From a virus (lineage: Duplodnaviria; Caudoviricetes): 63,218 bases of DNA. The stretch lies in the IMG/VR virus record IMGVR_UViG_3300010354_000088, positions 1 to 63,218 of that record. One strand, written 5' to 3'. Position 1 is the first letter of the stretch. Each line of letters starts with the position of its first letter. Made by a program: the position numbers and the translations under genes. Positions 49,975 through 60,579 of the stretch are shown piece by piece. The notes below the pieces were generated by a model. That model had not been told where the DNA came from, searched no databases, and was given only the letters and a program-made list of their open reading frames with translations.

Positions 49975-50333
49975 TATTTTCCTTTAATTTCTATAAGCTT
50001 TTCCAATAGTCGGGTTTCCATTTTCTGAATATCTACCCTTAGATTATTTACCTCTTGGAAATTTTTCTGTAATGAAGAATGCAGGCTTTCACGCAAGTCA
50101 TTATGGTTTTTAATCGTATCGTCAATCCTTGAATTGATAATAGTATGTTCTCTTTCCATGTCTTTTATAAGCTTTTTCTGACCGTCCTCAAGAACATCAA
50201 AATTTGCTTTTACCTTTTCAATGTTTCCCTTCATATAGAAGTAAGCACCTACTAAAGATATAAGACCCCCACATATCATAATTACATCAGTGGTTCTGAA
50301 AAGAATGTCATTTGCGTTAACTTGCAGAAACAT
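49974..50333 (-). CDS. Single-TM coiled-coil protein (holin-like candidate)
   Basis: TM segment VIMICGGLISLVGAYFYM followed by a heptad coil. Confidence 0.45.
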   Translation of the reverse strand: MFLQVNANDILFRTTDVIMICGGLISLVGAYFYMKGNIEKVKANFDVLEDGQKKLIKDMEREHTIINSRIDDTIKNHNDLRESLHSSLQKNFQEVNNLRVDIQKMETRLLEKLIEIKGK

Positions 50334-50334
50334 A

Positions 50335-50559
50335 TCACTCAGCTATAATAGGTGATCCATAATTAGTGCCAACATTAGCGTTCTGTGAACGATTAAATGT
50401 TGGACTTCCGAATCCTAAAACACCTCCGCCATTAGGCTTTTGAGTTCGCAATGTTTTTTCTACACAGCAATCAGGTGTAGAAGGACTAATAACACAGCAA
50501 GTATTCCATGTTTTCCAGACAGATGCTGGATTCCAGCGTGATTTAGATACTTTGAACAT
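50335..50559 (-). CDS. Hypothetical small Cys-containing protein
   Basis: 74 aa with two CC pairs; fills the operon gap. Confidence 0.45.
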   Translation of the reverse strand: MFKVSKSRWNPASVWKTWNTCCVISPSTPDCCVEKTLRTQKPNGGGVLGFGSPTFNRSQNANVGTNYGSPIIAE

Positions 50560-50986
50560 TTTCAGTTGTTTTTATAAGTTCCCATTTAAACAATCGAGCC
50601 ACAACTTCCGGTGTGATACCTTCTATCTCTTCTATTTCACTATCGTAAATCTCACAAACTAATACTTCAATCTCTTCATTCATTACCGACATAACTTCTT
50701 CTTCAGCTTTTTTCTTTGCTTCTTCATCCTGAAATTTGTAAACCAATGTGTTATTAACAATTTCAGTAAGTACATCTCCATTGTCATCTTTTTCAGCGTA
50801 CTTGTTAAGTACCTCACGACGAAGTTCATCATAGCTGTTCATTTGCTCCAAAAGAGCATTAATTGATTTAACAATCTTCAGAACAACCTTGCCTGGCATC
50901 TTAATAGACTTTAATTCATTAAGAGTAGGCATTAAATCTGTAAGGATTTCTATATTCTTAATCTTGATCTTTTTTATCTGTGTCAT
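50543..50986 (-). CDS. DUF1617-like protein, paralog 2
   Basis: KIKN...YDELR...KYAEKDDNG pattern. Confidence 0.55.
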   Translation of the reverse strand: MTQIKKIKIKNIEILTDLMPTLNELKSIKMPGKVVLKIVKSINALLEQMNSYDELRREVLNKYAEKDDNGDVLTEIVNNTLVYKFQDEEAKKKAEEEVMSVMNEEIEVLVCEIYDSEIEEIEGITPEVVARLFKWELIKTTENVQSI

Positions 50987-50987
50987 C

Positions 50988-51392
50988 TTATTCTGTTATT
51001 AATTCATTTTTAATTAAGCATTCAAGAGTGTTAGCATCTAAAACAATATCTGCAATGTCATTAAACTGTATAGGATAAACAGTTACTTCTGCTTCTTCAT
51101 TAAGAATTTCTCCTAATACAGTATAAACATCATTTGTAATCTCTTCAGATTCAAACTTGTAATTATTGTTTTCGTCAAACACAGGGCTTCCATTTTCATC
51201 TTTTATGCACTTAGCATTAAGAATAGAAAACCTGAGCTTATCATATTCCTCTCCGGCTTTAATTAAAGGATCAATAGTTTTAATAACCTTGTACATTACT
51301 CTGGTAGGAAGTAAACTTCTTTTCATTTGTACATATGCAGGAATAATCATACTTATTACATCTGCATTTTTTACTTTAATCGTCTTGTTCAT
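50988..51392 (-). CDS. DUF1617-like protein, paralog 1
   Basis: KVKN...YDKLR...KCIKDENG pattern; similar to the neighbouring gene. Confidence 0.55.
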   Translation of the reverse strand: MNKTIKVKNADVISMIIPAYVQMKRSLLPTRVMYKVIKTIDPLIKAGEEYDKLRFSILNAKCIKDENGSPVFDENNNYKFESEEITNDVYTVLGEILNEEAEVTVYPIQFNDIADIVLDANTLECLIKNELITE

Positions 51393-51422
51393 CTATGGTC
51401 TGTTTATTATTTACTTTGAAAA

Positions 51423-51944
51423 TTATCTTTCACAAGGACTTTCAGGTGCATTACATACTCCATTAAATGTTATAGTATGCGTTCCATCATAAGTGGGGCC
51501 TTCAGAACTCATGCATGCTGAAAAAGAACCAGGAGCAATTAGTATATTAAAATTCTGTCTACTTCCAGAACAGTCATAATATGAACCAGTGCCTGTAGTT
51601 GTGTAATTTACAGTAAAACAATAACATACCTGAGAAAGGCTATCGCAATTGTTATTTGCACAAGGCCCGTTATTCACTAAACTGATAATAGGATTTGCAA
51701 CTGATCCGTTAGTAACAACAACAGAATCAGGTTGAGCACAGATACTGTATTGCACAGGATATCTTACAGAAATAGCACTTTCTGTTCCAGTGCAATCTAC
51801 ATATGCAATAGTGCTGTCAGGCTCTGCTATTACTGTATAACAATAACAAGCACCATTACAATCTTTACAAGTGCAACAGTCGGCATTGCTTTGTGATTTT
51901 TGATAAAATGTTGGCCCAGGATTTCCAGGAAAAAAATTTGACAT
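51423..51944 (-). CDS. Cys-rich two-repeat protein
   Basis: 16 Cys in 173 aa; two repeats of CYC[YF]TV...Y.DC[TS]G...C...NG.C. Confidence 0.65.
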   Translation of the reverse strand: MSNFFPGNPGPTFYQKSQSNADCCTCKDCNGACYCYTVIAEPDSTIAYVDCTGTESAISVRYPVQYSICAQPDSVVVTNGSVANPIISLVNNGPCANNNCDSLSQVCYCFTVNYTTTGTGSYYDCSGSRQNFNILIAPGSFSACMSSEGPTYDGTHTITFNGVCNAPESPCER

Positions 51945-51946
51945 GA

Positions 51947-52495
51947 CTATAAAGTTTTAATAGCTTTTAATACTCGGTTGTTTACGGTGTAATTATTTCC
52001 ACCAGCATTGTAAGTTACAAGTTTAACAATATAACTACTACCTGCCGGAACAATTAATGACGCACCAATACTGCTAATGCTTAAACTCAAACTGGAAGGG
52101 ATTCTTGTTACCCTTTGGCTTCCATTAAGAATTACATCGCTTGGATCCTGGCTTACAATAAGAGGATTGGTGTTGTAAGAAATATAATAAGAAAGATCAT
52201 CCGGAGTTGCACTTCCTAATACACAGGTATCAAAAAAGATATCCCACTTACCTTCTGTTAAAACAAAATTTAAGCTGGGAATTACATCTGCCGACGTATT
52301 GTTGTTAGTGTATCCTGTAGTTTGCACAGAAGAAACACTTTGACCGAAATTCTGAACAGCTGTAGTCACTAATGCAAGAAGAGCTGCATATGTAATGCTC
52401 TTATTATCACCAAGAACCGGGCCTTGAGATATTACAAATTTGTCAGTGCTGTTTAATGTGGTAGTCGGCGTCATAGCCGAAATAGGAACTCCCAT
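51947..52495 (-). CDS. Fibre-like virion protein
   Basis: N-terminal ISAM...LNSTDKFVISQG...NKSIT fibre motif and a beta-sandwich-like C-terminus. Confidence 0.55.
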   Translation of the reverse strand: MGVPISAMTPTTTLNSTDKFVISQGPVLGDNKSITYAALLALVTTAVQNFGQSVSSVQTTGYTNNNTSADVIPSLNFVLTEGKWDIFFDTCVLGSATPDDLSYYISYNTNPLIVSQDPSDVILNGSQRVTRIPSSLSLSISSIGASLIVPAGSSYIVKLVTYNAGGNNYTVNNRVLKAIKTL

Positions 52496-52505
52496 TGTCT
52501 ATTGC

Positions 52506-52754
52506 TTATGTGGTTTGTACTGCTATGAAATAACTCGTAGTCAATTCATTTGTGCAGCCCTCAAGCAATATACAATCAAAATTTGAGGAAAAACCTTCAA
52601 GCAATATGGGATCATCTCCTCCTCCTTCAAGCAAAATGCAACAGTCGTCAAAACATTGATCACAGTTCTTGTTGTCGTAAAACAACCCAAGGTCATTCTC
52701 GGCACTTTCACCGAAAATCATCTTTTTACCCCTGTGGTCTTTATTCCAAAACAT
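52506..52754 (-). CDS. Small protein with three ILLEG repeats
   Basis: CCILLEG, DPILLEG, DCILLEG. Confidence 0.55.
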   Translation of the reverse strand: MFWNKDHRGKKMIFGESAENDLGLFYDNKNCDQCFDDCCILLEGGGDDPILLEGFSSNFDCILLEGCTNELTTSYFIAVQTT

Positions 52755-52757
52755 TTT

Positions 52758-53288
52758 CTATCCTTCAAAAAGCTTTGCTTTACCTCCCCCTACTTGATGA
52801 GCATCTTCAACTGATTTGAAAACCTGCTTCTCAAGATCATCCCGTAGCTTTACCAGCTTTGCTGCGTTAACTACTGACTCAGCTACAATATTATGATTTT
52901 TTTCAGTGACTTTCAAATCCTTCCAAAAATTTAAATACTCCTCAACCTTTTCGTCAACACCGTAAAACAACCTCTCCTTGGCACTATATTGAATCTTACC
53001 TATAAATTCAATACAATCACTCACTTCAACAATAGACTCAATCTTCTCCCATTCATTTGCCTTCAATTTAAGCCTGTCAACACATACCATCTGCTTCCTG
53101 TCCAAAGGCAATACATCCGAATAAACACTATTACGGTCATATACCAAATGCAAATAAGTGATGATCTTCTTAAACTCCCCCTCGTCCTTTTTATACTTCT
53201 TCCTTAAAGCAATAAAAGGCCCCGCAGCCTCAGCCTGAGAAGCTAAAAAAACATCCTCATTAAGAGTGTCAAATATTACTTTTGCCAT
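52758..53288 (-). CDS. Hypothetical protein, candidate terminase small subunit
   Basis: 176 aa, helical, with a C-terminal GGGKAKLFEG tail; lies upstream of TerL; function inferred from position. Confidence 0.4.
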   Translation of the reverse strand: MAKVIFDTLNEDVFLASQAEAAGPFIALRKKYKKDEGEFKKIITYLHLVYDRNSVYSDVLPLDRKQMVCVDRLKLKANEWEKIESIVEVSDCIEFIGKIQYSAKERLFYGVDEKVEEYLNFWKDLKVTEKNHNIVAESVVNAAKLVKLRDDLEKQVFKSVEDAHQVGGGKAKLFEG

Positions 53289-53542
53289 GGCTTCAATTCC
53301 ATAGTAAGAAAACGACCCTTGCTGTAATCACCATGGTTGTTAATCCAATGACAATCTACACCAATAACAAAAGTCTTCCTTTTGCCAGAAATCTCTTTAC
53401 TGGTCTTTACAACCTGATCAACATACATCTTCCTGTCAGGATAATCCCTATGGTAAACCTCAGAACCAGTCTTGATCCAACGCTTATCCTCATTAAGGCT
53501 ATTACAGAAATTCTCCTCCTGCAATGTCTTTGTGTCTTTCAT
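53276..53542 (-). CDS. Small SH3-like (YodC/DUF2158-like) protein
   Basis: G.EV.H....KMYV...VDCHW....G.....F....L pattern. Confidence 0.45.
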   Translation of the reverse strand: MKDTKTLQEENFCNSLNEDKRWIKTGSEVYHRDYPDRKMYVDQVVKTSKEISGKRKTFVIGVDCHWINNHGDYSKGRFLTMELKPWQK

Positions 53543-53936
53543 AATCTATCTCTATGTTTATATAAACTCCAGGATTCTTCTTGTCATACCTGTAAGGCAA
53601 AAATACAGGAATTATCTCATCACAATTATCATCATCTATCCAACCATATCTAACCATCAAATCCTGAACCGTCTGAGCAGGATTAATATAATCAAACTTC
53701 CTATGGCTATCCCTCACAAACTCAAACTCAACAACCAAAGGCTTACCCATACCACTTATCAACCTACTGAAAAACTTGCCAGAAATAACCCAGGCAGCCT
53801 CAGTGGACTTAATGTAATTCATAGTCTGCTTAGAACTAATAACCAAAGTCCTAGATCCATGCCTTACAACCCTCTTGCTGTTCTTACTGCTAGGAACATT
53901 CCCAGGAATAAAAAAACTACGCTTATAAACCTTCAT
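53502..53936 (-). CDS. RusA-like Holliday junction resolvase
   Basis: IPGNVPSSKN, RKFDYINPAQTVQDLM and GWIDDDN acidic motifs. Confidence 0.75.
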   Translation of the reverse strand: MKVYKRSFFIPGNVPSSKNSKRVVRHGSRTLVISSKQTMNYIKSTEAAWVISGKFFSRLISGMGKPLVVEFEFVRDSHRKFDYINPAQTVQDLMVRYGWIDDDNCDEIIPVFLPYRYDKKNPGVYINIEIDYERHKDIAGGEFL

Positions 53937-54465
53937 CCTCAGAAATTAATCCACGCAATACATCACTAGTGTTATCCAATGCCTCATCAACCTTGCCATT
54001 ACTCCAATCATTAAGCCTGTCCAACATAGCATCTACCTTCTGCTGCCTTAGCCAATCGTACCTCTCAAACCTAGAATATAAAGCCCTGCCAGAATTAGTG
54101 TAACCACCATCCACATTACTAGATATATAACCGTAAACCGTACTGAAAAAAAGATCACTCGATATCAACCTCTCCTGCAACGAAAACAACCCCCCAGAAT
54201 TATAACTATCCACCAACCCCTTCATAACATCCCCAGAATAATTACCGCAAAATACCCCCCTGTCCTTCACAACATAATAACACCCATCCCAACCAGGACT
54301 AACAAAAAAACTAATAAAATTTTCAAAGGATTCGTAAAAACCAGGAGAATCAACCTCCGGCAAATCGTAAGAAACTGGGTCTCCACCCATATCATTCCCC
54401 GATAAATAACTGTAAGTAATGTAAGGGTACACACCCCCACTCATAGATGCATTCTCTTCTTTCAT
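53923..54465 (-). CDS. Hypothetical protein, first gene of the minus-strand module
   Basis: 180 aa, overlaps the RusA-like start, preceded by a promoter. Confidence 0.5.
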   Translation of the reverse strand: MKEENASMSGGVYPYITYSYLSGNDMGGDPVSYDLPEVDSPGFYESFENFISFFVSPGWDGCYYVVKDRGVFCGNYSGDVMKGLVDSYNSGGLFSLQERLISSDLFFSTVYGYISSNVDGGYTNSGRALYSRFERYDWLRQQKVDAMLDRLNDWSNGKVDEALDNTSDVLRGLISEDEGL

Positions 54466-54494
54466 AAATCTGTCCTTTAAGGTTTCTGTTTATA

Positions 54495-54526
54495 CAAACA
54501 TAAACACTTATACCCATACCCCCAAA
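54495..54526 (-). promoter_or_regulatory. Bacteroidota consensus promoter TTTG-20 nt-TATGTTTG
   Basis: -33 TTTG at 54523-54526 and -7 TAnnTTTG at 54495-54502 with canonical spacing, 30 nt upstream of the ATG at 54465. Confidence 0.65.
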
Positions 54527-54578
54527 TAATATCCCCACCCTTTTATTAACACCCCGATACCCCCATACCCCATACCCC
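54513..54578 (-). repeat. Tandem ATACCCC-type repeats forming G-tract clusters on the minus strand
   Basis: CCC-ATA-CCCCC-9nt-CCCC-A-CCC and CCCC-GATA-CCCCC-ATA-CCCC-ATA-CCCC. Confidence 0.8.
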
Positions 54579-54659
54579 TAATTTCTATTCGAGGCTATAC
54601 CTTTAGGAACCATCCTACTCTACTCCCCCCTATGCCTTAACCAATAAAAACAAAACAAA

Positions 54660-54962
54660 ATGAAACTATCAAAGAATTACAGCCAGGTGACAACAGTGTC
54701 TAAATCAGTTGTAGCACAAGCGAAGGAACAATCTTTTGCAGTAGGTAATGAAAACTACAGCAAACAAGAGTGTCTAATCAAGTTAGGTGCAAACAATACT
54801 GATAGTAGTAAGGTAATGGTGTTCTTATACTTTAAAGGACAGAAGACATTTATCACATCAGTAGCTAATCTACCACAGAATCTACTGATAGAGAAGGGAG
54901 AAGGATATGAAGTAGTAGAAAAGACAGTATTGGAAATCAAGGAAGGGAAAATCCTTTCTTAA
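54660..54962 (+). CDS. Hypothetical protein, first plus-strand gene
   Basis: 100 aa with an A-rich leader, followed by a terminator. Confidence 0.65.
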   Translation: MKLSKNYSQVTTVSKSVVAQAKEQSFAVGNENYSKQECLIKLGANNTDSSKVMVFLYFKGQKTFITSVANLPQNLLIEKGEGYEVVEKTVLEIKEGKILS

Positions 54963-54965
54963 ATT

Positions 54966-54990
54966 AAAGGGGAGAAATCCCCTTTTTTTT
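54966..54990 (+). terminator. Rho-independent terminator
   Basis: AAAGGGGA-GAAA-TCCCCTTT hairpin with a T8 tract. Confidence 0.85.
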
Positions 54991-55118
54991 AAAAATCTGT
55001 TTAAATGGAAAGAATAGTACTAGGTTGTTGTATGTAAATAGTAATATATATAGCAACAGGGAATTTTGCATTTGTTCCACGAATTAAATAAGTGTTTCAC
55101 AAACTAAACTAACTAGAT

Positions 55119-55325
55119 ATGGAAAATACAATAACAGAACAAAGCCAGTTAATCGAATAGATAAAAGACTTCATGAAAGATAAAGTTAACTCTTATGACA
55201 GTAGTCATAATGAGAAAGCCTATTGGTCATGTAGAGATGCTTTGAATTTAGCTCTAAGTACAGATGATTTAAAAACTGTAAGAATAGCTAGGTCTTTATT
55301 TGAAAGATATAAATGGTATTTGTAA
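55119..55325 (+). pseudogene. Small ORF with an in-frame TAG at codon 14 (or a 50-aa CDS from ATG 55173)
   Basis: MENTITEQSQLIE*IKDFMKDKVNSY...RYKWYL; followed by a GGGGC-TTAG-GCTCC hairpin and T tract. Confidence 0.4.
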
Positions 55326-55340
55326 GGGGGCTTAGGCTCC

Positions 55341-55448
55341 ATTTTTAATGCACCATAACTCACTTCCCAAGGGTGAGCAGTTGTAAAGTATGGTCATGCG
55401 AACAGTGTGGCTGCCATTCCAGAAATACAACTGAGTGCAGAGGGGATT
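55341..55448 (+). ncRNA. Twister-like self-cleaving ribozyme (type P1) candidate
   Basis: UAA-UGCA(P2)-CC...CUCAC-UUCCCAAGG-GUGAG(P4)-CAGUUGUA...UACAACUG(P5)-AG-UGCA-GA-GGG; both pseudoknots can pair; P1 is weak. Confidence 0.7.
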
Positions 55449-55552
55449 AGTCAGGTGGCGGAATGGGTTGTCCGCAATTGGGTACACAATGAGAGCGTGG
55501 GCTAAGGTACACAGGCGTAGCTCTTCAACAGGTTCGAATCCTGTCCTGACTA
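55449..55552 (+). tRNA. tRNA-like element with non-canonical anticodon arm and oversized variable region
   Basis: Acceptor stem AGTCAGG/CCTGACT, TGGCGGAATGG D-arm (GCGG/CCGC) and T-arm ACAGG-TTCGAAT-CCTGT; no assignable anticodon. Confidence 0.7.
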
Positions 55553-55606
55553 CTAAACAATTAAATATTAAAACAATATATAAACCAAAAACCAAAAACA
55601 AACAAT

Positions 55607-55918
55607 ATGAAAACCACAGTAACAGTTATTCTATATTCATCTCATGCAGAGATGATCGCACCATATGTTTGCGGAGATCGAGTGCAATTTAGGCGATATG
55701 TAGGTTACTGCGAATGCAGTGACGGAGGTAAAAATAGAAATTATGTGTTTGAAGGTTACACTAATGAGCCTTCATACACAATTAGAGACGTATTTGAACG
55801 TCTAAACGACACCATCAATGTAAGAGAACTCGTCTTTGAGGGAATAGACGAATTACCTATCTGCGGTGACGCAGACTTTCAGGTAGGAAAGGGAATTTAC
55901 TCTCTAACATGGGGGTAA
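55607..55918 (+). CDS. Hypothetical protein
   Basis: 103 aa with an A-rich leader. Confidence 0.6.
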   Translation: MKTTVTVILYSSHAEMIAPYVCGDRVQFRRYVGYCECSDGGKNRNYVFEGYTNEPSYTIRDVFERLNDTINVRELVFEGIDELPICGDADFQVGKGIYSLTWG

Positions 55919-55919
55919 T

Positions 55920-56003
55920 ATGAAAACAAGATATGTGATAACTAGTATATGGATTATATATTTATTGGCCGTTGTAATGACGGCAATAGCGTATTACTGG
56001 TGA
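55920..56003 (+). CDS. 27-aa hydrophobic peptide
   Basis: MKTRYVITSIWIIYLLAVVMTAIAYYW; starts 1 nt after the previous stop and ends at a terminator hairpin. Confidence 0.5.
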   Translation: MKTRYVITSIWIIYLLAVVMTAIAYYW

Positions 56004-56004
56004 C

Positions 56005-56045
56005 AAAAAACCCGGATTATATTATATATTTTCCGGGTTTTTTTT
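56005..56045 (+). terminator. Terminator-like inverted repeat, possibly bidirectional
   Basis: AAAAAACCCGGA...TCCGGGTTTTTTTT. Confidence 0.65.
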
Positions 56046-56074
56046 ACCAATTTGTTACACAAAAAAATATTAAA

Positions 56075-56251
56075 ATGGACAAGAAAATCAATAGAAAAAT
56101 TAATAAATCCATAGATAAACTCAACAATAAGTTGAGAAAAGAAGGATTTAAAAATGGTATAGTGTACCATTTTAGAATGACTGATTCTTATATCAGACGT
56201 ATCCAATTATTGTGTAGATTAAGAGATAATCTAGACAGTTATGATACATGA
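56075..56251 (+). CDS. Small basic hypothetical protein
   Basis: Start reassigned to MDKKINRK because the longer frame crosses the terminator. Confidence 0.5.
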   Translation: MDKKINRKINKSIDKLNNKLRKEGFKNGIVYHFRMTDSYIRRIQLLCRLRDNLDSYDT

Positions 56252-56435
56252 AATTAAGCAGGTTATTTGGGTAACTACTCCACATGGTGATGGTCAAGCT
56301 CTGTTCATTATAGACTATGGGCCACATGAAAACACTATATGGGTAGTTGCCTTAGAATGTGACGGCAGGGTGTTACATTACAACTCTAATCAAATAAGGT
56401 TATGTAAAAACGATACATTTAATATAAACTTATAG
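56241..56435 (+). CDS. Hypothetical phage protein
   Basis: 64 aa (WVTTPHGDGQALFIIDYG), packed in the operon. Confidence 0.6.
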   Translation: MIHEIKQVIWVTTPHGDGQALFIIDYGPHENTIWVVALECDGRVLHYNSNQIRLCKNDTFNINL

Positions 56436-56439
56436 TATC

Positions 56440-56718
56440 ATGAGAGTTATATGCATCAACGACAAAGACCGGCCTAATGAGATTCCTACATCTAAATGGA
56501 TAGTCAAAGACAGGATCTATACTATTGTTAAAGTATGGCATATCAGGCAAAGACCTGGTACATATGGTGTAGAGTTAGCAGAGATAGATCTGTCAGTTTG
56601 CTTTCCATATCTGTACTTCTCAGCAAATAGATTTGCTCCTGTTATGTCTAATAAGGATATAGAAGCCATCCTTGAAAAGGCTTTAGAAGAACAAGAACTA
56701 ATACAAGAAACAACATGA
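56440..56718 (+). CDS. Hypothetical phage protein
   Basis: 92 aa, MRVICIND...RF SH3-like pattern. Confidence 0.65.
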   Translation: MRVICINDKDRPNEIPTSKWIVKDRIYTIVKVWHIRQRPGTYGVELAEIDLSVCFPYLYFSANRFAPVMSNKDIEAILEKALEEQELIQETT

Positions 56719-56987
56719 ACGAAGAGTATTTAGTGTTAATGGATGCATCTCAAGATGAAATTCATAAAAACAATCAAGGAAGAAAGAATGATGAAACTTC
56801 TTTGAAAATACAAGAACTAATTTCCAATATGGAAGTAGGACAGAAGTTTTATATTACATCCGAATATAAGTCTCGAACCGTCACTTATCTTACAAGGAAC
56901 TTCCATAAAGTTGAGGGTAATGAAAGATATTACAAAGTAAAACAAATATTAAAAGGACAAAAATATGCTGTCATTAGAATCCGCTAA
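56715..56987 (+). CDS. Hypothetical protein, possible small DNA-binding protein
   Basis: ATGA overlap with the previous gene; NMEVGQKFYI...VIRIR. Confidence 0.55.
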   Translation: MNEEYLVLMDASQDEIHKNNQGRKNDETSLKIQELISNMEVGQKFYITSEYKSRTVTYLTRNFHKVEGNERYYKVKQILKGQKYAVIRIR

Positions 56988-57076
56988 ATTGTATATAACA
57001 TACAAGTGTATATTAAAACGATCTATAAGAGAGTTTCAATACCTTGGAACTAAACTTAAATCACAGCCAGATAAAT

Positions 57077-57376
57077 ATGCCATATGGTGTAAGGTGGCAC
57101 AAACAATTTAATCCAATATCTATGTACAACTCATATAAAGAAATAAATGACCTTGAATCTGAGGTCAAGAAATATACAGATACAAAGATTATGTCTCTAA
57201 TTGAAAAAGAATCAGAAACATTCCAAGTATATGTAGAGAAAATTAGAGCTGAAATATTTCAGAGAACAGGAGATATTACAGTTAGCGTGCATGGACAAAT
57301 AGCTGATGAGATACATTTAATTGTATTAAAAGAAGTATCAAGGCGATGGGTAATACTAAAAGAATGCATCGAGTAG
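57077..57376 (+). CDS. Hypothetical protein (start uncertain)
   Basis: Helical ORF overlapping the next gene. Confidence 0.5.
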   Translation: MPYGVRWHKQFNPISMYNSYKEINDLESEVKKYTDTKIMSLIEKESETFQVYVEKIRAEIFQRTGDITVSVHGQIADEIHLIVLKEVSRRWVILKECIE

Positions 57377-58221
57377 ATAGAAAGTCTGTAATTATACGTC
57401 CTAGTGGTCGCAGTACAGATTATATATCTCCCAGCTTTGGATATGGATGCGTGTTTAATTGCAGCTATTGTTATATGAAAAGACATAAACCAATAGGTCT
57501 TGACATAGCGGACAATACAGAACACATACTGTCTGAAATATATAGCCATTCTATGTTTGCTGATGTATCTAAGCCAAATCAGACACATGAGAAATATATC
57601 ACATATGATATCTCATGCAATGAAGATTTCTCAGCTCACCTTAAATACCATAACTGGAATAAGATATTCAGGTTCTTTATGGATAATGACCATATTATGG
57701 GCAGCTTTGCCACTAAATATGCCAACAAAGACCTGTTGTTCTTTAATCCTCAACGTAAGATAAGGGTAAGAATGAGTTTGATGCCTCAGATATATTCACA
57801 TGCATTAGAACCAAACACAACTAGCATAAAGGATAGAATATCATTCATCAACAGCCTTTATGAAGCTGGATATGATGTGCATATTAACTTTTCTCCTGTA
57901 ATAGTTTATGATAATTGGCTTGAACACTATGAACAACTGTTTGTGGATGTAAACAAAATAGTCAAAGACAATTACAAAGAACATGTTAAAGCAGAAGTCA
58001 TATTCCTGACTCACAACAAGAACAAACATGAATACAATCTGAATAACAATATCTCCGGCGAATATCTATTACATAATCCTGATATACAGGAAGACAAGAT
58101 ATCTCAATATGGAGGTAATAACATCAGATATAAAGCTTCTCTAAAAGCTAAATACATTAAAAGCTTTATTGATATTCATGATAAGATTATTCCTTGGAAC
58201 AAAATAAGATACATCTTTTAA
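57346..58221 (+). CDS. Radical SAM protein, spore photoproduct lyase-like
   Basis: GYGCVFNCSYCYM (CxxxCxxC), SFATK, RVRMSL and AGYDVHINFSPVI are SPL-family-like motifs. Confidence 0.8.
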   Translation: MGNTKRMHRVDRKSVIIRPSGRSTDYISPSFGYGCVFNCSYCYMKRHKPIGLDIADNTEHILSEIYSHSMFADVSKPNQTHEKYITYDISCNEDFSAHLKYHNWNKIFRFFMDNDHIMGSFATKYANKDLLFFNPQRKIRVRMSLMPQIYSHALEPNTTSIKDRISFINSLYEAGYDVHINFSPVIVYDNWLEHYEQLFVDVNKIVKDNYKEHVKAEVIFLTHNKNKHEYNLNNNISGEYLLHNPDIQEDKISQYGGNNIRYKASLKAKYIKSFIDIHDKIIPWNKIRYIF

Positions 58222-58223
58222 CA

Positions 58224-58418
58224 ATGAAATACTCAATCTTTTCATTTGCAATATTCTTTTTATTGCTATTCTGTATTCTTAGATATGGATCAAGAAACAG
58301 AGATAAACCAAAAACTATTCCCATTTATTACAAATATAAAATAGACTCAGTGGATAGATATCATGTAGATTCAACAGGTAAATATTTATTGAGATACAAC
58401 GGAGACACTGTTAAATAA
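58224..58418 (+). CDS. Small membrane-anchored protein
   Basis: N-terminal hydrophobic helix MKYSIFSFAIFFLLLFCIL. Confidence 0.5.
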   Translation: MKYSIFSFAIFFLLLFCILRYGSRNRDKPKTIPIYYKYKIDSVDRYHVDSTGKYLLRYNGDTVK

Positions 58419-58434
58419 TATAAAAAAAACAAAT

Positions 58435-59463
58435 ATGGAATTAGTTATGCAAAAAGATATAAATGATTGTTTTGAAAAAACTTTCGCTTCTTTCGGTGTT
58501 ATGATAGAAGAAATAAAATCAAGAAAGTCTAATGATGTGATGCTTAAAAATCACAGCATTACTGTTCTAGACTCTATATACAGGTCTATACAAAATATTG
58601 AAGTCTTAAATGTAAAATTTGATTTAGGAATGTATATGACTTCATTTAGAAACTATATTAACAATAAGATAGGAAATGAGATCTCAAGTCTTATTGAAGA
58701 CAGATTAGAAGAAATCATCAATAATGTGTCAAACATTTATTTTAAATATTGTTCAGACAAAACAAATGAAGTTTATGTTCTTGATTTTAATAATATCATT
58801 GATATTGCTCCTGTAATAAAAACTAATGATGGAAAATCTAACATCATTGGTATGATATTTTATAATAGTAAAATTAATAAATACAATGTCATGCCTTGTT
58901 TGGAAGAAATTCCATATATCAATGTATTTAACAAATCAAGTCTTAAATTTTATGAATCTCTTACATATGAAAATGATATTTCAGGAGATCCTGATATGTC
59001 AATATTTGAAAGAAAAATGATTTCACATTACATTTTAAGTAAAGACGCAAATGTAGATTTCATATATAATCTATATTCATCATCTTTATTTCCAAATTGG
59101 CTGTATTCTATTGTTGACAGAATAGCATTTGAAAATGCTTGTGCATCTGATTTGTATGATGGAGAAGAACATGTTGTAAGAAAAAAGGTTCGTGATGAGT
59201 ACGATTATTACAATAATCAGATTATGATGAATGTAGGCAGTTTAAATGAATCTAATAGTGATTTAATTAGAGATATTTCACAATATAAATTGCAACTGCA
59301 TCCCAAAGGAGATCCTATGTTTACAAAAGTTAATGAAATTACAACGGGATTTGCAGACAAAAACAGTGCAATGATGTATTTGTACAGCCTTAACATGAAA
59401 ATTGTAGCAGACAAATACTCAAACAAAGCATCCGGATTTATCAACGACATATTAAACTTCTAA
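58435..59463 (+). CDS. Hypothetical protein
   Basis: 342-aa AT-rich ORF. Confidence 0.65.
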   Translation: MELVMQKDINDCFEKTFASFGVMIEEIKSRKSNDVMLKNHSITVLDSIYRSIQNIEVLNVKFDLGMYMTSFRNYINNKIGNEISSLIEDRLEEIINNVSNIYFKYCSDKTNEVYVLDFNNIIDIAPVIKTNDGKSNIIGMIFYNSKINKYNVMPCLEEIPYINVFNKSSLKFYESLTYENDISGDPDMSIFERKMISHYILSKDANVDFIYNLYSSSLFPNWLYSIVDRIAFENACASDLYDGEEHVVRKKVRDEYDYYNNQIMMNVGSLNESNSDLIRDISQYKLQLHPKGDPMFTKVNEITTGFADKNSAMMYLYSLNMKIVADKYSNKASGFINDILNF

Positions 59464-59475
59464 ATCAAAAACAAA

Positions 59476-60579
59476 ATGACAACTGTAATAATTATTCTTT
59501 TCTTCGCTTCAATTTGCATTCTTTTGGTGTCAGGCAAATTATTGTTTAATGCAAGAAAAAGCCTGCAAAATTCAAAAAACATATTGCAATCTTCTGAGTT
59601 TTCTTTAATGTCATCTATTGAAAGAAGCAAACAAGCAGCCTTACTTGTTGAAGAAGCGAAAAAAATAAATTCTGATTCAAAAAATGATAATCAGGATAAA
59701 TCAAGAGTAGAAATGATAAAGTTCTATTCTGAATATTCAAATAATCTTGAGGATGAAATAATGAGACAGATTGATAAAAAATCTAATCATATATCAAATG
59801 TAATCAATATGTTTAAAGACAAAGATGACAGTGAAATATCAAAAGAAAATGTTAATATGATAATTGATATTATAACAGATTTTCTTGAAAGTCATGTCAA
59901 TTTTGACAATCTGAAGATTTCTTTGATTACAAATCAGATGAATTTCATCAAAGCAAGAATGGAAGACAGAAAAAGTAAAAACATGGATATATCAGAAGAG
60001 TTAAAATATTATGATATGTCTAAAGAACTTATGGATTCAATGAAAAATACAACAAATGCATTGAAGTCTAAGATTGATAAAATAAATAATTATTGCAGAG
60101 AAGAAAATAATTTAGATTTATTAACTAATCTTTTAACAGATATAATTGATCTCCGTAAAAATGGAGTTTTTAACTCAAATAAATCTGAAGATAATTCTTA
60201 TTCAGTTAAAAATATAGACAAAACATTAAGATTTAAAACTCAGGAAGAATTTAAAAAAACTCTTGATAACAGTAAATCTTTTGATATTAATAATTCAGAA
60301 AGAGCTAATCTTCAAATATTCTTAACTACTATCAATAATCTTATTGAAAGCAAATGTGAAGAAAACGAAAAGTGGGTAGAAGCTTTGAATATGATTCCGG
60401 ATGTAATGAATGATGAAGATTTAAAGATCTGGAGTATTTATTACGATAGTGTTCTGTCTTCAGAAAAATACAAGAAGTTCACATCTGAAAATTACCCTAA
60501 TTTAACGAACACAGAAAAATGGGTTTTTAATAGTATTATGAAAATTGAAAATTCAATTAAATCTAAAAACAATGGCTAA
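59476..60579 (+). CDS. Membrane-anchored coiled-coil protein
   Basis: N-terminal TM segment and a long helical body. Confidence 0.65.
   Translation: MTTVIIILFFASICILLVSGKLLFNARKSLQNSKNILQSSEFSLMSSIERSKQAALLVEEAKKINSDSKNDNQDKSRVEMIKFYSEYSNNLEDEIMRQIDKKSNHISNVINMFKDKDDSEISKENVNMIIDIITDFLESHVNFDNLKISLITNQMNFIKARMEDRKSKNMDISEELKYYDMSKELMDSMKNTTNALKSKIDKINNYCREENNLDLLTNLLTDIIDLRKNGVFNSNKSEDNSYSVKNIDKTLRFKTQEEFKKTLDNSKSFDINNSERANLQIFLTTINNLIESKCEENEKWVEALNMIPDVMNDEDLKIWSIYYDSVLSSEKYKKFTSENYPNLTNTEKWVFNSIMKIENSIKSKNNG

Follow-up and report, generated by a model that had tools for sequence, protein, structure and literature searches.

The window, i.e. the complete stretch of 63,218 nucleotides that was analyzed, is a 63-kb virus record with an estimated completeness of 76%. 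It carries an ORF of 6690 aa and a large terminase with ~31% identity to those of crAss-like phages of Bacteroides, Flavobacterium, and Cellulophaga, and it was contained in 20 sequencing runs, all of DNA and mostly labeled as freshwater or other aquatic metagenomes. Searches of the GenBank phages in INPHARED with blastn (query 55300-55620) and megablast (query 50000-60000) gave no match. The locus considered here lies on the + strand, ~700 nt inside a rightward gene block, in the intergenic space between an upstream ORF (55173-55325) and a downstream ORF (55607-55918). It consists of a hairpin, a motif with the layout of a twister ribozyme, found once in the 63-kb record by the family covariance model described below, and a tRNA-like RNA. 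Upon re-reading, the letters and positions at 55326-55448 were as the earlier note had given them. The parts of the locus are as follows (MFE, minimum free energy; pseudoknots T1 and T2 are named PK2 and PK1, respectively, in PMC11662667):

55327-55340, + strand: 5-bp G+C-rich hairpin followed by AUUUUU, terminator-like in the consensus scan and also present in the MFE fold
55344-55446, + strand: whole motif, with the element order of a type-P1 twister
55344-55346, + strand: 5' strand of P1 (U55344, U55345) and N-1 (U55346), from the sequence and the P1 register across the family
55346/55347, + strand: predicted scissile bond U55346/A55347, placed by the UAA of the Rfam consensus
55347-55348, + strand: AA after the predicted cut, matching the UAA of the Rfam consensus
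55349-55353, + strand: 5' strand of P2, UGCAC (UGCA at 55349-55352), pairing with 55435-55439, from covariation
55353-55354, + strand: CC, proposed 5' strand of the 2-bp pseudoknot T2/PK1, which could pair with G55371-G55372
55359-55377, + strand: P4 hairpin, CUCAC (55359-55363) with GUGAG (55373-55377), from covariation
55364-55372, + strand: loop L4, UUCCCAAGG, in which C55366-C55368 form the 5' strand of pseudoknot T1
55378-55433, + strand: auxiliary stem-loop P5 with variable interior, from covariation
55378-55385 with 55426-55433, + strand: 8-bp stem of P5, CAGUUGUA with UACAACUG, from covariation
55435-55439, + strand: 3' strand of P2, GUGCA (UGCA at 55436-55439), from covariation
55440-55444, + strand: G-A-GGG, with GGG (55442-55444) as the 3' strand of T1
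55445-55448, + strand: GAUU, i.e. the 3' strand of P1 (G55445, A55446) and 2 nt that separate it from the tRNA-like RNA
55449-55552, + strand: tRNA-like RNA with a cloverleaf-like MFE fold

This arrangement was compared with the Rfam consensus of the type-P1 twister (RF03160, clan CL00120), which reads, from natural matches, P1-UAA-P2 (cgCc)-GC-P3-P4 (cCG)-GUCCCAAGCC-(CGg)-UAAA-P2' (gGcg)-GAGGG-P1'. Both have the order P1, U^AA, P2, two letters ending in C, P4/L4, P2', G-A-GGG, and P1', together with a loop of the form ...UCCCAAG..., a covarying CCC/GGG pseudoknot, A at +1, a G preceding A-GGG, and a phage-associated context. The type-P1 element order named in the earlier note thus agrees with the Rfam twister-P1 consensus, as well as with the covariation in relatives presented below, and its predicted cleavage position, U55346/A55347, coincides with the Rfam UAA. 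The resemblance is also visible in individual sequences: one natural twister, ...UAAUGCAGC...GUCACAAGCC...UGCAGAGUG..., is close to UAAUGCACC...UUCCCAAGG...UGCAGAGGG of the window, and one natural Lachnospiraceae twister shares UAAUGCA...UGCAGAG with the window copy.

No Rfam model detected the candidate ribozyme. At the gathering score, no ribozyme match, including twister, twister-sister, HDV-family, and hatchet, was found in the 63-kb window, and at E ≤ 10 a search of 601 bases returned no ribozyme and a sole match, to tRNA-Sec (18.5 bits), on the tRNA-like part. The twister-P1 model itself gave no match at E ≤ 10 in the 63-kb window or in five other records holding the motif, and the 116 bases around the shortest (88-nt) copy matched neither twister nor twister-sister at the same threshold. 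The gathering score of this model is 67.2 bits. In one Lachnospiraceae-level family it found matches in 4 of 151 genomes at E ≤ 0.001, each scoring less than 67.2 bits; the natural Lachnospiraceae twisters themselves score 45-58 bits, i.e. under the cut-off. For twister-sister (RF02681), 0 of 151 genomes matched.

The fold energy of 55326-55448 is likewise ordinary (MFE z = -1.25, with 23 of 200 shuffles folding equally well), and a non-significant single-sequence fold is what a chance resemblance without function would give. The relatives of the motif, on the other hand, place it far beyond chance. At least 119 viral contigs contain the exact 17-mer spanning P4/L4, and among the matches listed the conserved 5' flank accompanies it in 118 of 119 loci. 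The shared flanks comprise UAAUGCACCA, a linker of 3-4 letters, CU, the 17-mer, CAGUUGUAAU, a variable stretch, and AUUACAACUGAGUGCAGAGGG. As a control, the 17-mer was also searched in bacterial genome contigs, where it was found at 33 loci; five of these, all on MAG contigs, carry the flanks, and the remaining 28 are bare chance matches without them. Such matches show that the word itself can arise by accident and could be held in favor of a coincidental likeness, which is nevertheless refuted by the comparative data, i.e. by the flanks common to the viral loci and by covariation in five helices; we consider its probability negligible. What emerges is a large and nearly uniform family of phage twisters, with at least 118 contigs found through a single exact word and further ones through the model.

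A covariance model (R1) was built from 51 short copies, including that of the window, in a plain MAFFT alignment (A1). A second alignment (A2) holds 58 model matches in 56 distinct rows; as it was fitted to a model with P1, P2, P4, and P5, counts taken from it lean towards those helices. Full-length copies outside A1 scored ~37-103 bits and the 28 chance loci at most 23 bits, while the 95 bits of the window copy are high by construction, as this copy was part of A1. On one canonical twister detected by Rfam, the family model gave a weak full-length match at the exact site (15.1 bits, E 0.26). The motif measures 88-335 nt in relatives, with mini copies down to ~70 nt (L100:6357-6430, L245:8021-8093, L148:5665-5734, and L125:2135-2202), and several loci carry two to four twister copies inside a few kb. 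Of the 99 distinct copies, 96 have kept GAGGG, and a U occupies N-1 in 90 of 98; the A at +1, present in every extracted copy, served as an extraction anchor, and its invariance is therefore required rather than measured.

Covariation supports helices P1, P2, P4, and P5. For P2, P4, and P5, none of 500 shuffles reached the observed value in any of five measures, in A1 (51 sequences) and in A2 (56 rows) alike, and ~90.6% of helix cells pair, versus 28-53% when the partners are slid. In P2, the third pair is C-G in 43 sequences and U-A in 12. In P4, of which at least six sequence types exist among relatives, two-sided changes affect all five pairs (8, 17, 21, 14, and 11 sequences). P5 has two-sided changes at all eight pairs in A2, which bears out the 8-bp stem that had been read from the window sequence. 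The window copy has a P1 of just two pairs (U55345-G55445 and U55344-A55446), and across the family this helix is short as well: 98 distinct flank pairs form on average 2.77 contiguous P1 pairs, versus 1.24 ± 0.11 when partners are permuted between copies and 0.38-0.93 in slid registers. The observed mean was reached in 0 of 1000 permutations; no adjacent P1 pair can be formed in 18 of the 98 copies, while others, such as L019:2992-3173, L015, and L016:1392-1596, possess a strong P1.

Two pseudoknots had been proposed for the window. Pairing of the loop CCC with the 3' GGG (T1), which was absent from the model that produced A2, covaries in relatives, as had been anticipated from the letters. 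A scan for copies with a changed first loop C gave at least 115 loci, 12 of which passed a P4 filter and six of which are true copies; among the matches listed, these six UCC-loop copies have a 3' GGA in five cases and GGG (with G-U) in one. In addition, one copy (L107:6322-6479) combines a CAC loop with a 3' GUG. In A2, the first T1 pair is C-G in 49 rows, U-A in five, and U-G in two; the second is C-G in 51, A-U in one, U-G in one, and another combination in one; the third is C-G in 51, A-U in one, and another combination in one. The pseudoknot that defines twisters is therefore supported.

The second pseudoknot (T2) is a different matter. Here the earlier note had seen a compensatory replacement of the usual GC/GC by CC/GG, which the relatives do not confirm. 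Between C55353 and loop nucleotide G55372, C-G (43) alternates with U-G (10), i.e. one-sided C-to-U changes with no double change, and the second T2 pair is invariant across relatives. C55353 covaries instead with G55435 (C-G 44, U-A 8), which points to either a fifth pair in P2 or a triple. Scans for T2 variants yielded 10 and 49 loci, corresponding to 36 distinct sequences, of which two (L287 and L321) were judged by eye to be true copies; the rest mostly share another conserved word and look, again by eye, like a coding region. Both true copies carry a single G-to-A change in the loop GG and keep CC without a compensating change, and that of L321 would strengthen a sixth pair in P4. The CC/GG pseudoknot is thus possible by pairing, covariation gives it no support, and it is not confirmed. 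The 5' strand of the 2-bp pseudoknot (there PK1) is given as 'NC' in PMC11662667, and CC/GG therefore falls within known twister variation.

The phage family departs from the type-P1 model (RF03160) in several respects. It lacks the P3 of the model, although one copy (L007) has an extra hairpin at precisely the P3 position; it carries a P5 of 40 to 250 nt at the site where the model has UAAA; its P4 has five pairs versus three; it has CC with a loop ending ...AAGG where the model has GC with ...AAGCC; its first C covaries with the 3' strand as a fifth P2 pair; and its P1 is often very short. The missing P3, the long P5, the 5-bp P4, and the CC/GG in place of GC/GC account for the Rfam miss, and as the RF03160 consensus contains P3 and no P5, the negative result was not taken as a refutation. 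The covariance-model match whose absence the earlier note had named as one half of a refutation was not obtained, yet the twister reading is still supported by the comparative evidence. Current Rfam twister models do not detect this phage clade, and since a whole clade is missed, counts of twisters in viromes are underestimates; a P5-aware twister model would be worth adding.

Parts of this architecture have been described before. According to PMC11662667, both P5/L5 and an upstream P0/L0 are already known from type-P1 twisters, and the twisters of that study resemble the phage family in their variable P5 and common upstream hairpin. The word 'phage' does not occur in that paper. Our literature searches yielded no published description of the phage twister clade, although such sequences may be listed in the supplementary alignments that accompany PMC11662667 and the original twister paper. 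Judged from its sequences, the family is probably a new and large phage clade of a known ribozyme class.

Other ribozyme classes were also considered. Twister-sister resembles the motif in that several stems meet at a junction, in that one internal loop and one hairpin loop are conserved, and in its association with phages. A Watson-Crick CCC/GGG pseudoknot is a feature of twister and is not known from twister-sister, and the twister-sister model (RF02681) gives no match to the window copy. Theta ribozymes sit 3' (downstream) of phage tRNAs. They are like the present motif in being a self-cleaving class (here cleavage is predicted) in a phage genome beside a tRNA gene (here a tRNA-like RNA), and unlike it in having a different fold; in our case the candidate ribozyme is upstream of the tRNA-like RNA and the link is rare. 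Theta ribozymes are described as HDV-like, self-cleaving, and adjoining viral tRNA genes in gut phages (PMC10879173), and the terms twister, hammerhead, and crAss have zero occurrences in that article. No HDV-family Rfam match is present in the window. Hatchet (RF02678) exceeded the Rfam cut-off in 2 of 13 scanned twister-bearing loci (L014:191-325 and L009:5635-5767); it is thus found in the same phage contigs, has an unrelated fold, and is absent from the window. Hatchets are largely confined to Crassvirales according to one preprint (10.64898/2026.03.07.710320). Self-cleaving ribozymes are known to cluster (PMC10085705), and hatchets in 2 of 13 twister-bearing loci fit this pattern.

Taken with the comparative evidence, the stretch 55344-55446 on the + strand is probably a type-P1 twister self-cleaving ribozyme with a P5 and without a P3, and a member of a large family from uncultivated phages. 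By analogy with known twisters, in which the A at +1 (A55347 here) is the general acid (PMC6765202), A55347 would be the putative general acid, and G55440 stands at the position of the twister general base. One doubt concerns catalysis: a twister-like fold might be kept without cleavage in vivo, in order to bind a protein or RNAP, to act as an attenuator, or to stabilize a 5'-UTR. Such a role would sit well with the absence of matches to Rfam ribozyme models, with the weak P1 that is common in the family (18 of 98 copies without an adjacent pair), and with the frequent location of the motif directly after terminator-like hairpins. Moreover, some degenerate relatives without L4 and GAGGG (L069:536-632, L016:425-503, L090:3516-3643, and L078:11544-11647) retain P5 and a continuous P1/P2 helix, which suggests a function of the junction without catalysis; together with the three of 99 copies in which the G of GAGGG is absent, they imply that some copies cannot be active. 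Against a generally non-cleaving fold, the invariant letters (UAA, UCCCAAG, GAGGG) are those of the twister active site and pseudoknots, which would be needless without catalysis. P1 imperfections are tolerated, and ~94% of the natural twister candidates tested cleave, according to PMC11662667, so that natural candidates with imperfections of this kind mostly cleave. We therefore regard the non-cleaving fold as improbable, and self-cleavage as the preferred reading.

The placement of the motif offers hints about its role. Considering the nearest ORF of at least 60 aa around 99 distinct copies, the upstream neighbor is on the same strand in 72 of 92 cases and the downstream neighbor in 78 of 89; the ORFs in this count were called mechanically, and overlap with an ORF was seen on the same strand for 13 copies and on the opposite strand for 24. 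A folding energy of -8 kcal/mol or less was reached by the upstream 40 nt in 26 of 95 copies, whereas a control window gave 11 of 95 and shuffles gave 5 of 95, and the last 7 nt before the motif are U-rich (3.8 vs. 2.15 U). In the window, the hairpin and U-run that the earlier note had described upstream were also flagged by the consensus scan. This hairpin (55327-55340) may be either terminator-like or an auxiliary P0/L0 stem, as found directly upstream of some twisters; in PMC11662667, upstream P0 hairpins reduced cleavage in vitro.

The co-orientation of the ORFs, the upstream hairpins and U-richness, and the intergenic siting together suggest that the predicted cleavage would serve the processing of intergenic transcripts. 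Once folded, the RNA would cleave itself at the bond joining U55346 to A55347, G55440 acting as the base and A55347 as the acid, as in the twister mechanism. Of the two products, the upstream RNA (ORF 55173-55325 and hairpin) would bear a terminal 2',3'-cyclic phosphate and the downstream RNA (ribozyme, tRNA-like RNA, and ORF 55607-55918) would begin with a 5'-OH. In this way, phage transcripts that are polycistronic or arise by read-through would be processed at the boundaries between genes, and the fates of the neighboring RNAs would be uncoupled by cleavage; the ribozyme would subsequently be cut off the tRNA-like RNA by RNase P, and its adjacency to that RNA would be incidental. PMC6765202 treats the biological role of twisters as unsettled and names transcript processing as one proposal for bacterial twisters. 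The stereotyped placement seen here (co-oriented, intergenic, and often after a hairpin and U-run) makes the idea testable.

A related possibility is that the twister is a fail-safe terminator or decay trigger, whose cut past the hairpin and U-run would destabilize downstream read-through RNA instead of leaving two stable products. The enrichment of upstream hairpins (26/95 vs. 11/95), the U content of the last 7 nt, and the terminator-like hairpin of the window itself would all be expected from it. Co-oriented ORFs or RNA genes lie close downstream, though, and are presumably expressed, and the cleavage step is common to this scenario and to transcript processing, with the fate of the product as the sole difference. 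We judge the fail-safe role rather unlikely and give preference to intergenic transcript processing.

The earlier note had gone further and suggested that the twister and the tRNA mimic may be one RNA-processing unit, in which case the ribozyme would be dedicated to maturing the 5' end of the tRNA-like RNA. Direct adjacency does occur, in the window and in L042, L103, and L341 (spacers of 4-7 nt, P1 weak). Yet a tRNA-like element follows just 3 of the 99 distinct twister copies, and just 2 of 143 distinct tRNA-like elements are directly preceded by the 3' end of a twister, so that the pairing is not a module. ORF starts come after most twisters, and many of the tRNA-like elements stand in tRNA arrays. 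The geometry is also unfavorable: as a twister cleaves at its own 5' end, the ribozyme would stay on the tRNA-like RNA, the 5' end of which would be left undefined by the cut, and since ~100 nt lie between the predicted cut and the acceptor, maturation would continue to depend on RNase P. A dedicated module is accordingly very improbable, far more so than the fail-safe role, and a twister that processes intergenic transcripts independently of the neighboring RNA remains the favored explanation.

The tRNA-like RNA deserves attention of its own. It starts at A55449 with a 7-bp acceptor (AGUCAGG/CCUGACU), ends with the discriminator A55552, and has, in the MFE fold, a Leu-like D arm, a T arm, and a long extra arm, with a hairpin of 4 bp and a 6-nt loop in place of the canonical anticodon arm of 5 bp and 7 nt. 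ARAGORN found 0 tRNA genes in 55449-55552, and the Rfam tRNA search of the same interval gave no match, the best score being that of tRNA-Sec (18.5 bits vs. a cut-off of 47). Exact copies of the 25 letters of its 3' end were found in at least 120 viral contigs, and as many as five lie within 5 kb. The family comprises at least 143 distinct elements, which measure 62-278 nt; 138 of the 143 have A as discriminator, most have a Leu-like D arm, and their hypervariable middle is 13 to 190 nt long. The invariance of the acceptor (AGUCAGG/CCUGACU) and of the T arm is a matter of ascertainment, as both were search anchors. On the basis of these sequences, the tRNA-like RNAs belong to a separate and widespread phage family with an invariant acceptor and T arm and a hypervariable middle. 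No paper describing this family was found in our literature searches, and it may be a more original lead than the twister. As ideas for its role, a handle for RNase P/Z, a non-decoding aminoacyl carrier, or a decoy may be put forward.

On a broader and more speculative level, which we hold to be a doubtful prospect at present, the transcripts of freshwater crAss-like and other uncultivated phages might be punctuated by an RNA-only toolkit made of twisters, hatchets, and a new class of 'anticodon-less' tRNA-like elements that would take no part in decoding and would serve solely as handles for RNase P/Z, aminoacylation, or decoys. The triplet of hairpin, twister, and tRNA-like RNA would then be a compact hub.

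Two readings of the variable middle of the tRNA-like RNAs were tried and rejected. With introns allowed, ARAGORN accepts 105 of 143 elements, but with ~54 different anticodons and shifting intron positions; as for an antisense reading, the middle of the element at 55449-55552 has no match of at least 10 nt elsewhere in the 63-kb window. ARAGORN recognizes 30 of the 143 elements, with scattered anticodons, and many elements reach the Rfam tRNA cut-off by their top half alone.

Among the loci compared with the window (L-numbers, with positions therein after the colon), the predicted type-P1 twister motif was found in several structural variants:

L100:6357-6430, minus strand, mini twister copy
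L245:8021-8093, plus strand, mini twister copy
L148:5665-5734, plus strand, mini twister copy
L125:2135-2202, minus strand, mini twister copy
L007:1064-1158, plus strand, twister copy carrying an additional hairpin (CACACA-GAAA-UGUGUG)
L069:536-632, degenerate relative of the motif
L016:425-503, degenerate relative
L090:3516-3643, degenerate relative
L078:11544-11647, degenerate relative
L075:6015-6161, degenerate relative

The four mini copies span only 68–74 nt and have a short hairpin in place of the full P5; they are the handiest candidates for cleavage assays. The extra hairpin of L007 is inserted between the CC that follows P2 and P4, i.e., at the position held by P3 in canonical twisters. 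In the degenerate relatives, which could be relics or else a derivative without catalysis, P5 and a P4-like hairpin persist while the UCCCAAG loop and/or GAGGG are gone; two of these relatives have their P1 and P2 strands joined in one continuous helix of ~10 bp. Where the nucleotide preceding the predicted cut is C (L112, L070, and L010), the 5′ flank reads CCC before A(A/U)UGCAC; this CCC could compete with the loop CCC for pairing with the 3′ GGG, making an alternative "off" fold possible.

Recurrent conserved intergenic words adjoin the twister copies on both sides, the 3′ neighbours being of three different kinds (~20–45 nt each) and the upstream one of a single kind:

L088, L115, and L062, downstream word
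L053 and L063, downstream word
L123, L038, L060, and L141, downstream word
L050, L062, L068, L075, L101, and L115, upstream hairpin GGUCC...GGAC(U/C)

The tRNA-like RNA directly downstream of the window twister also belongs to a family:

window 55449-55552, plus strand, tRNA-like family member (further copies in L346, L357, L370, L005, L004, and at least about 120 other loci)

Across all loci compared, 143 distinct elements of 62–278 nt were recovered, widespread in phages and frequently located in tRNA arrays. Their acceptor stem (AGUCAGG/CCUGACU) and T arm are identical in the copies found, a sameness by ascertainment given that both served as search anchors, while the middle is hypervariable and a consistent anticodon is absent.

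Two contigs bearing the twister family also carry hatchet ribozymes, both exceeding the Rfam cut-off, and a tmRNA match (62.7 bits) was observed at L014:8424-8820:

L014:191-325, plus strand, hatchet ribozyme (82.4 bits)
L009:5635-5767, plus strand, hatchet ribozyme (78.1 bits)

Within the window, an ATG at 55119 (region 55119-55325, plus strand) is in frame with a TAG at 55158-55160, followed by an ORF at 55173-55325. Read-through of this TAG would give a single 68-aa ORF, but it is probably nothing, because the remainder of the window is open under the standard code, including this ORF:

window 7753-27825, minus strand, single ORF of 6690 aa

Together with a terminase ~31% identical to those of crAss-like phages, this ORF places the record near Crassvirales.
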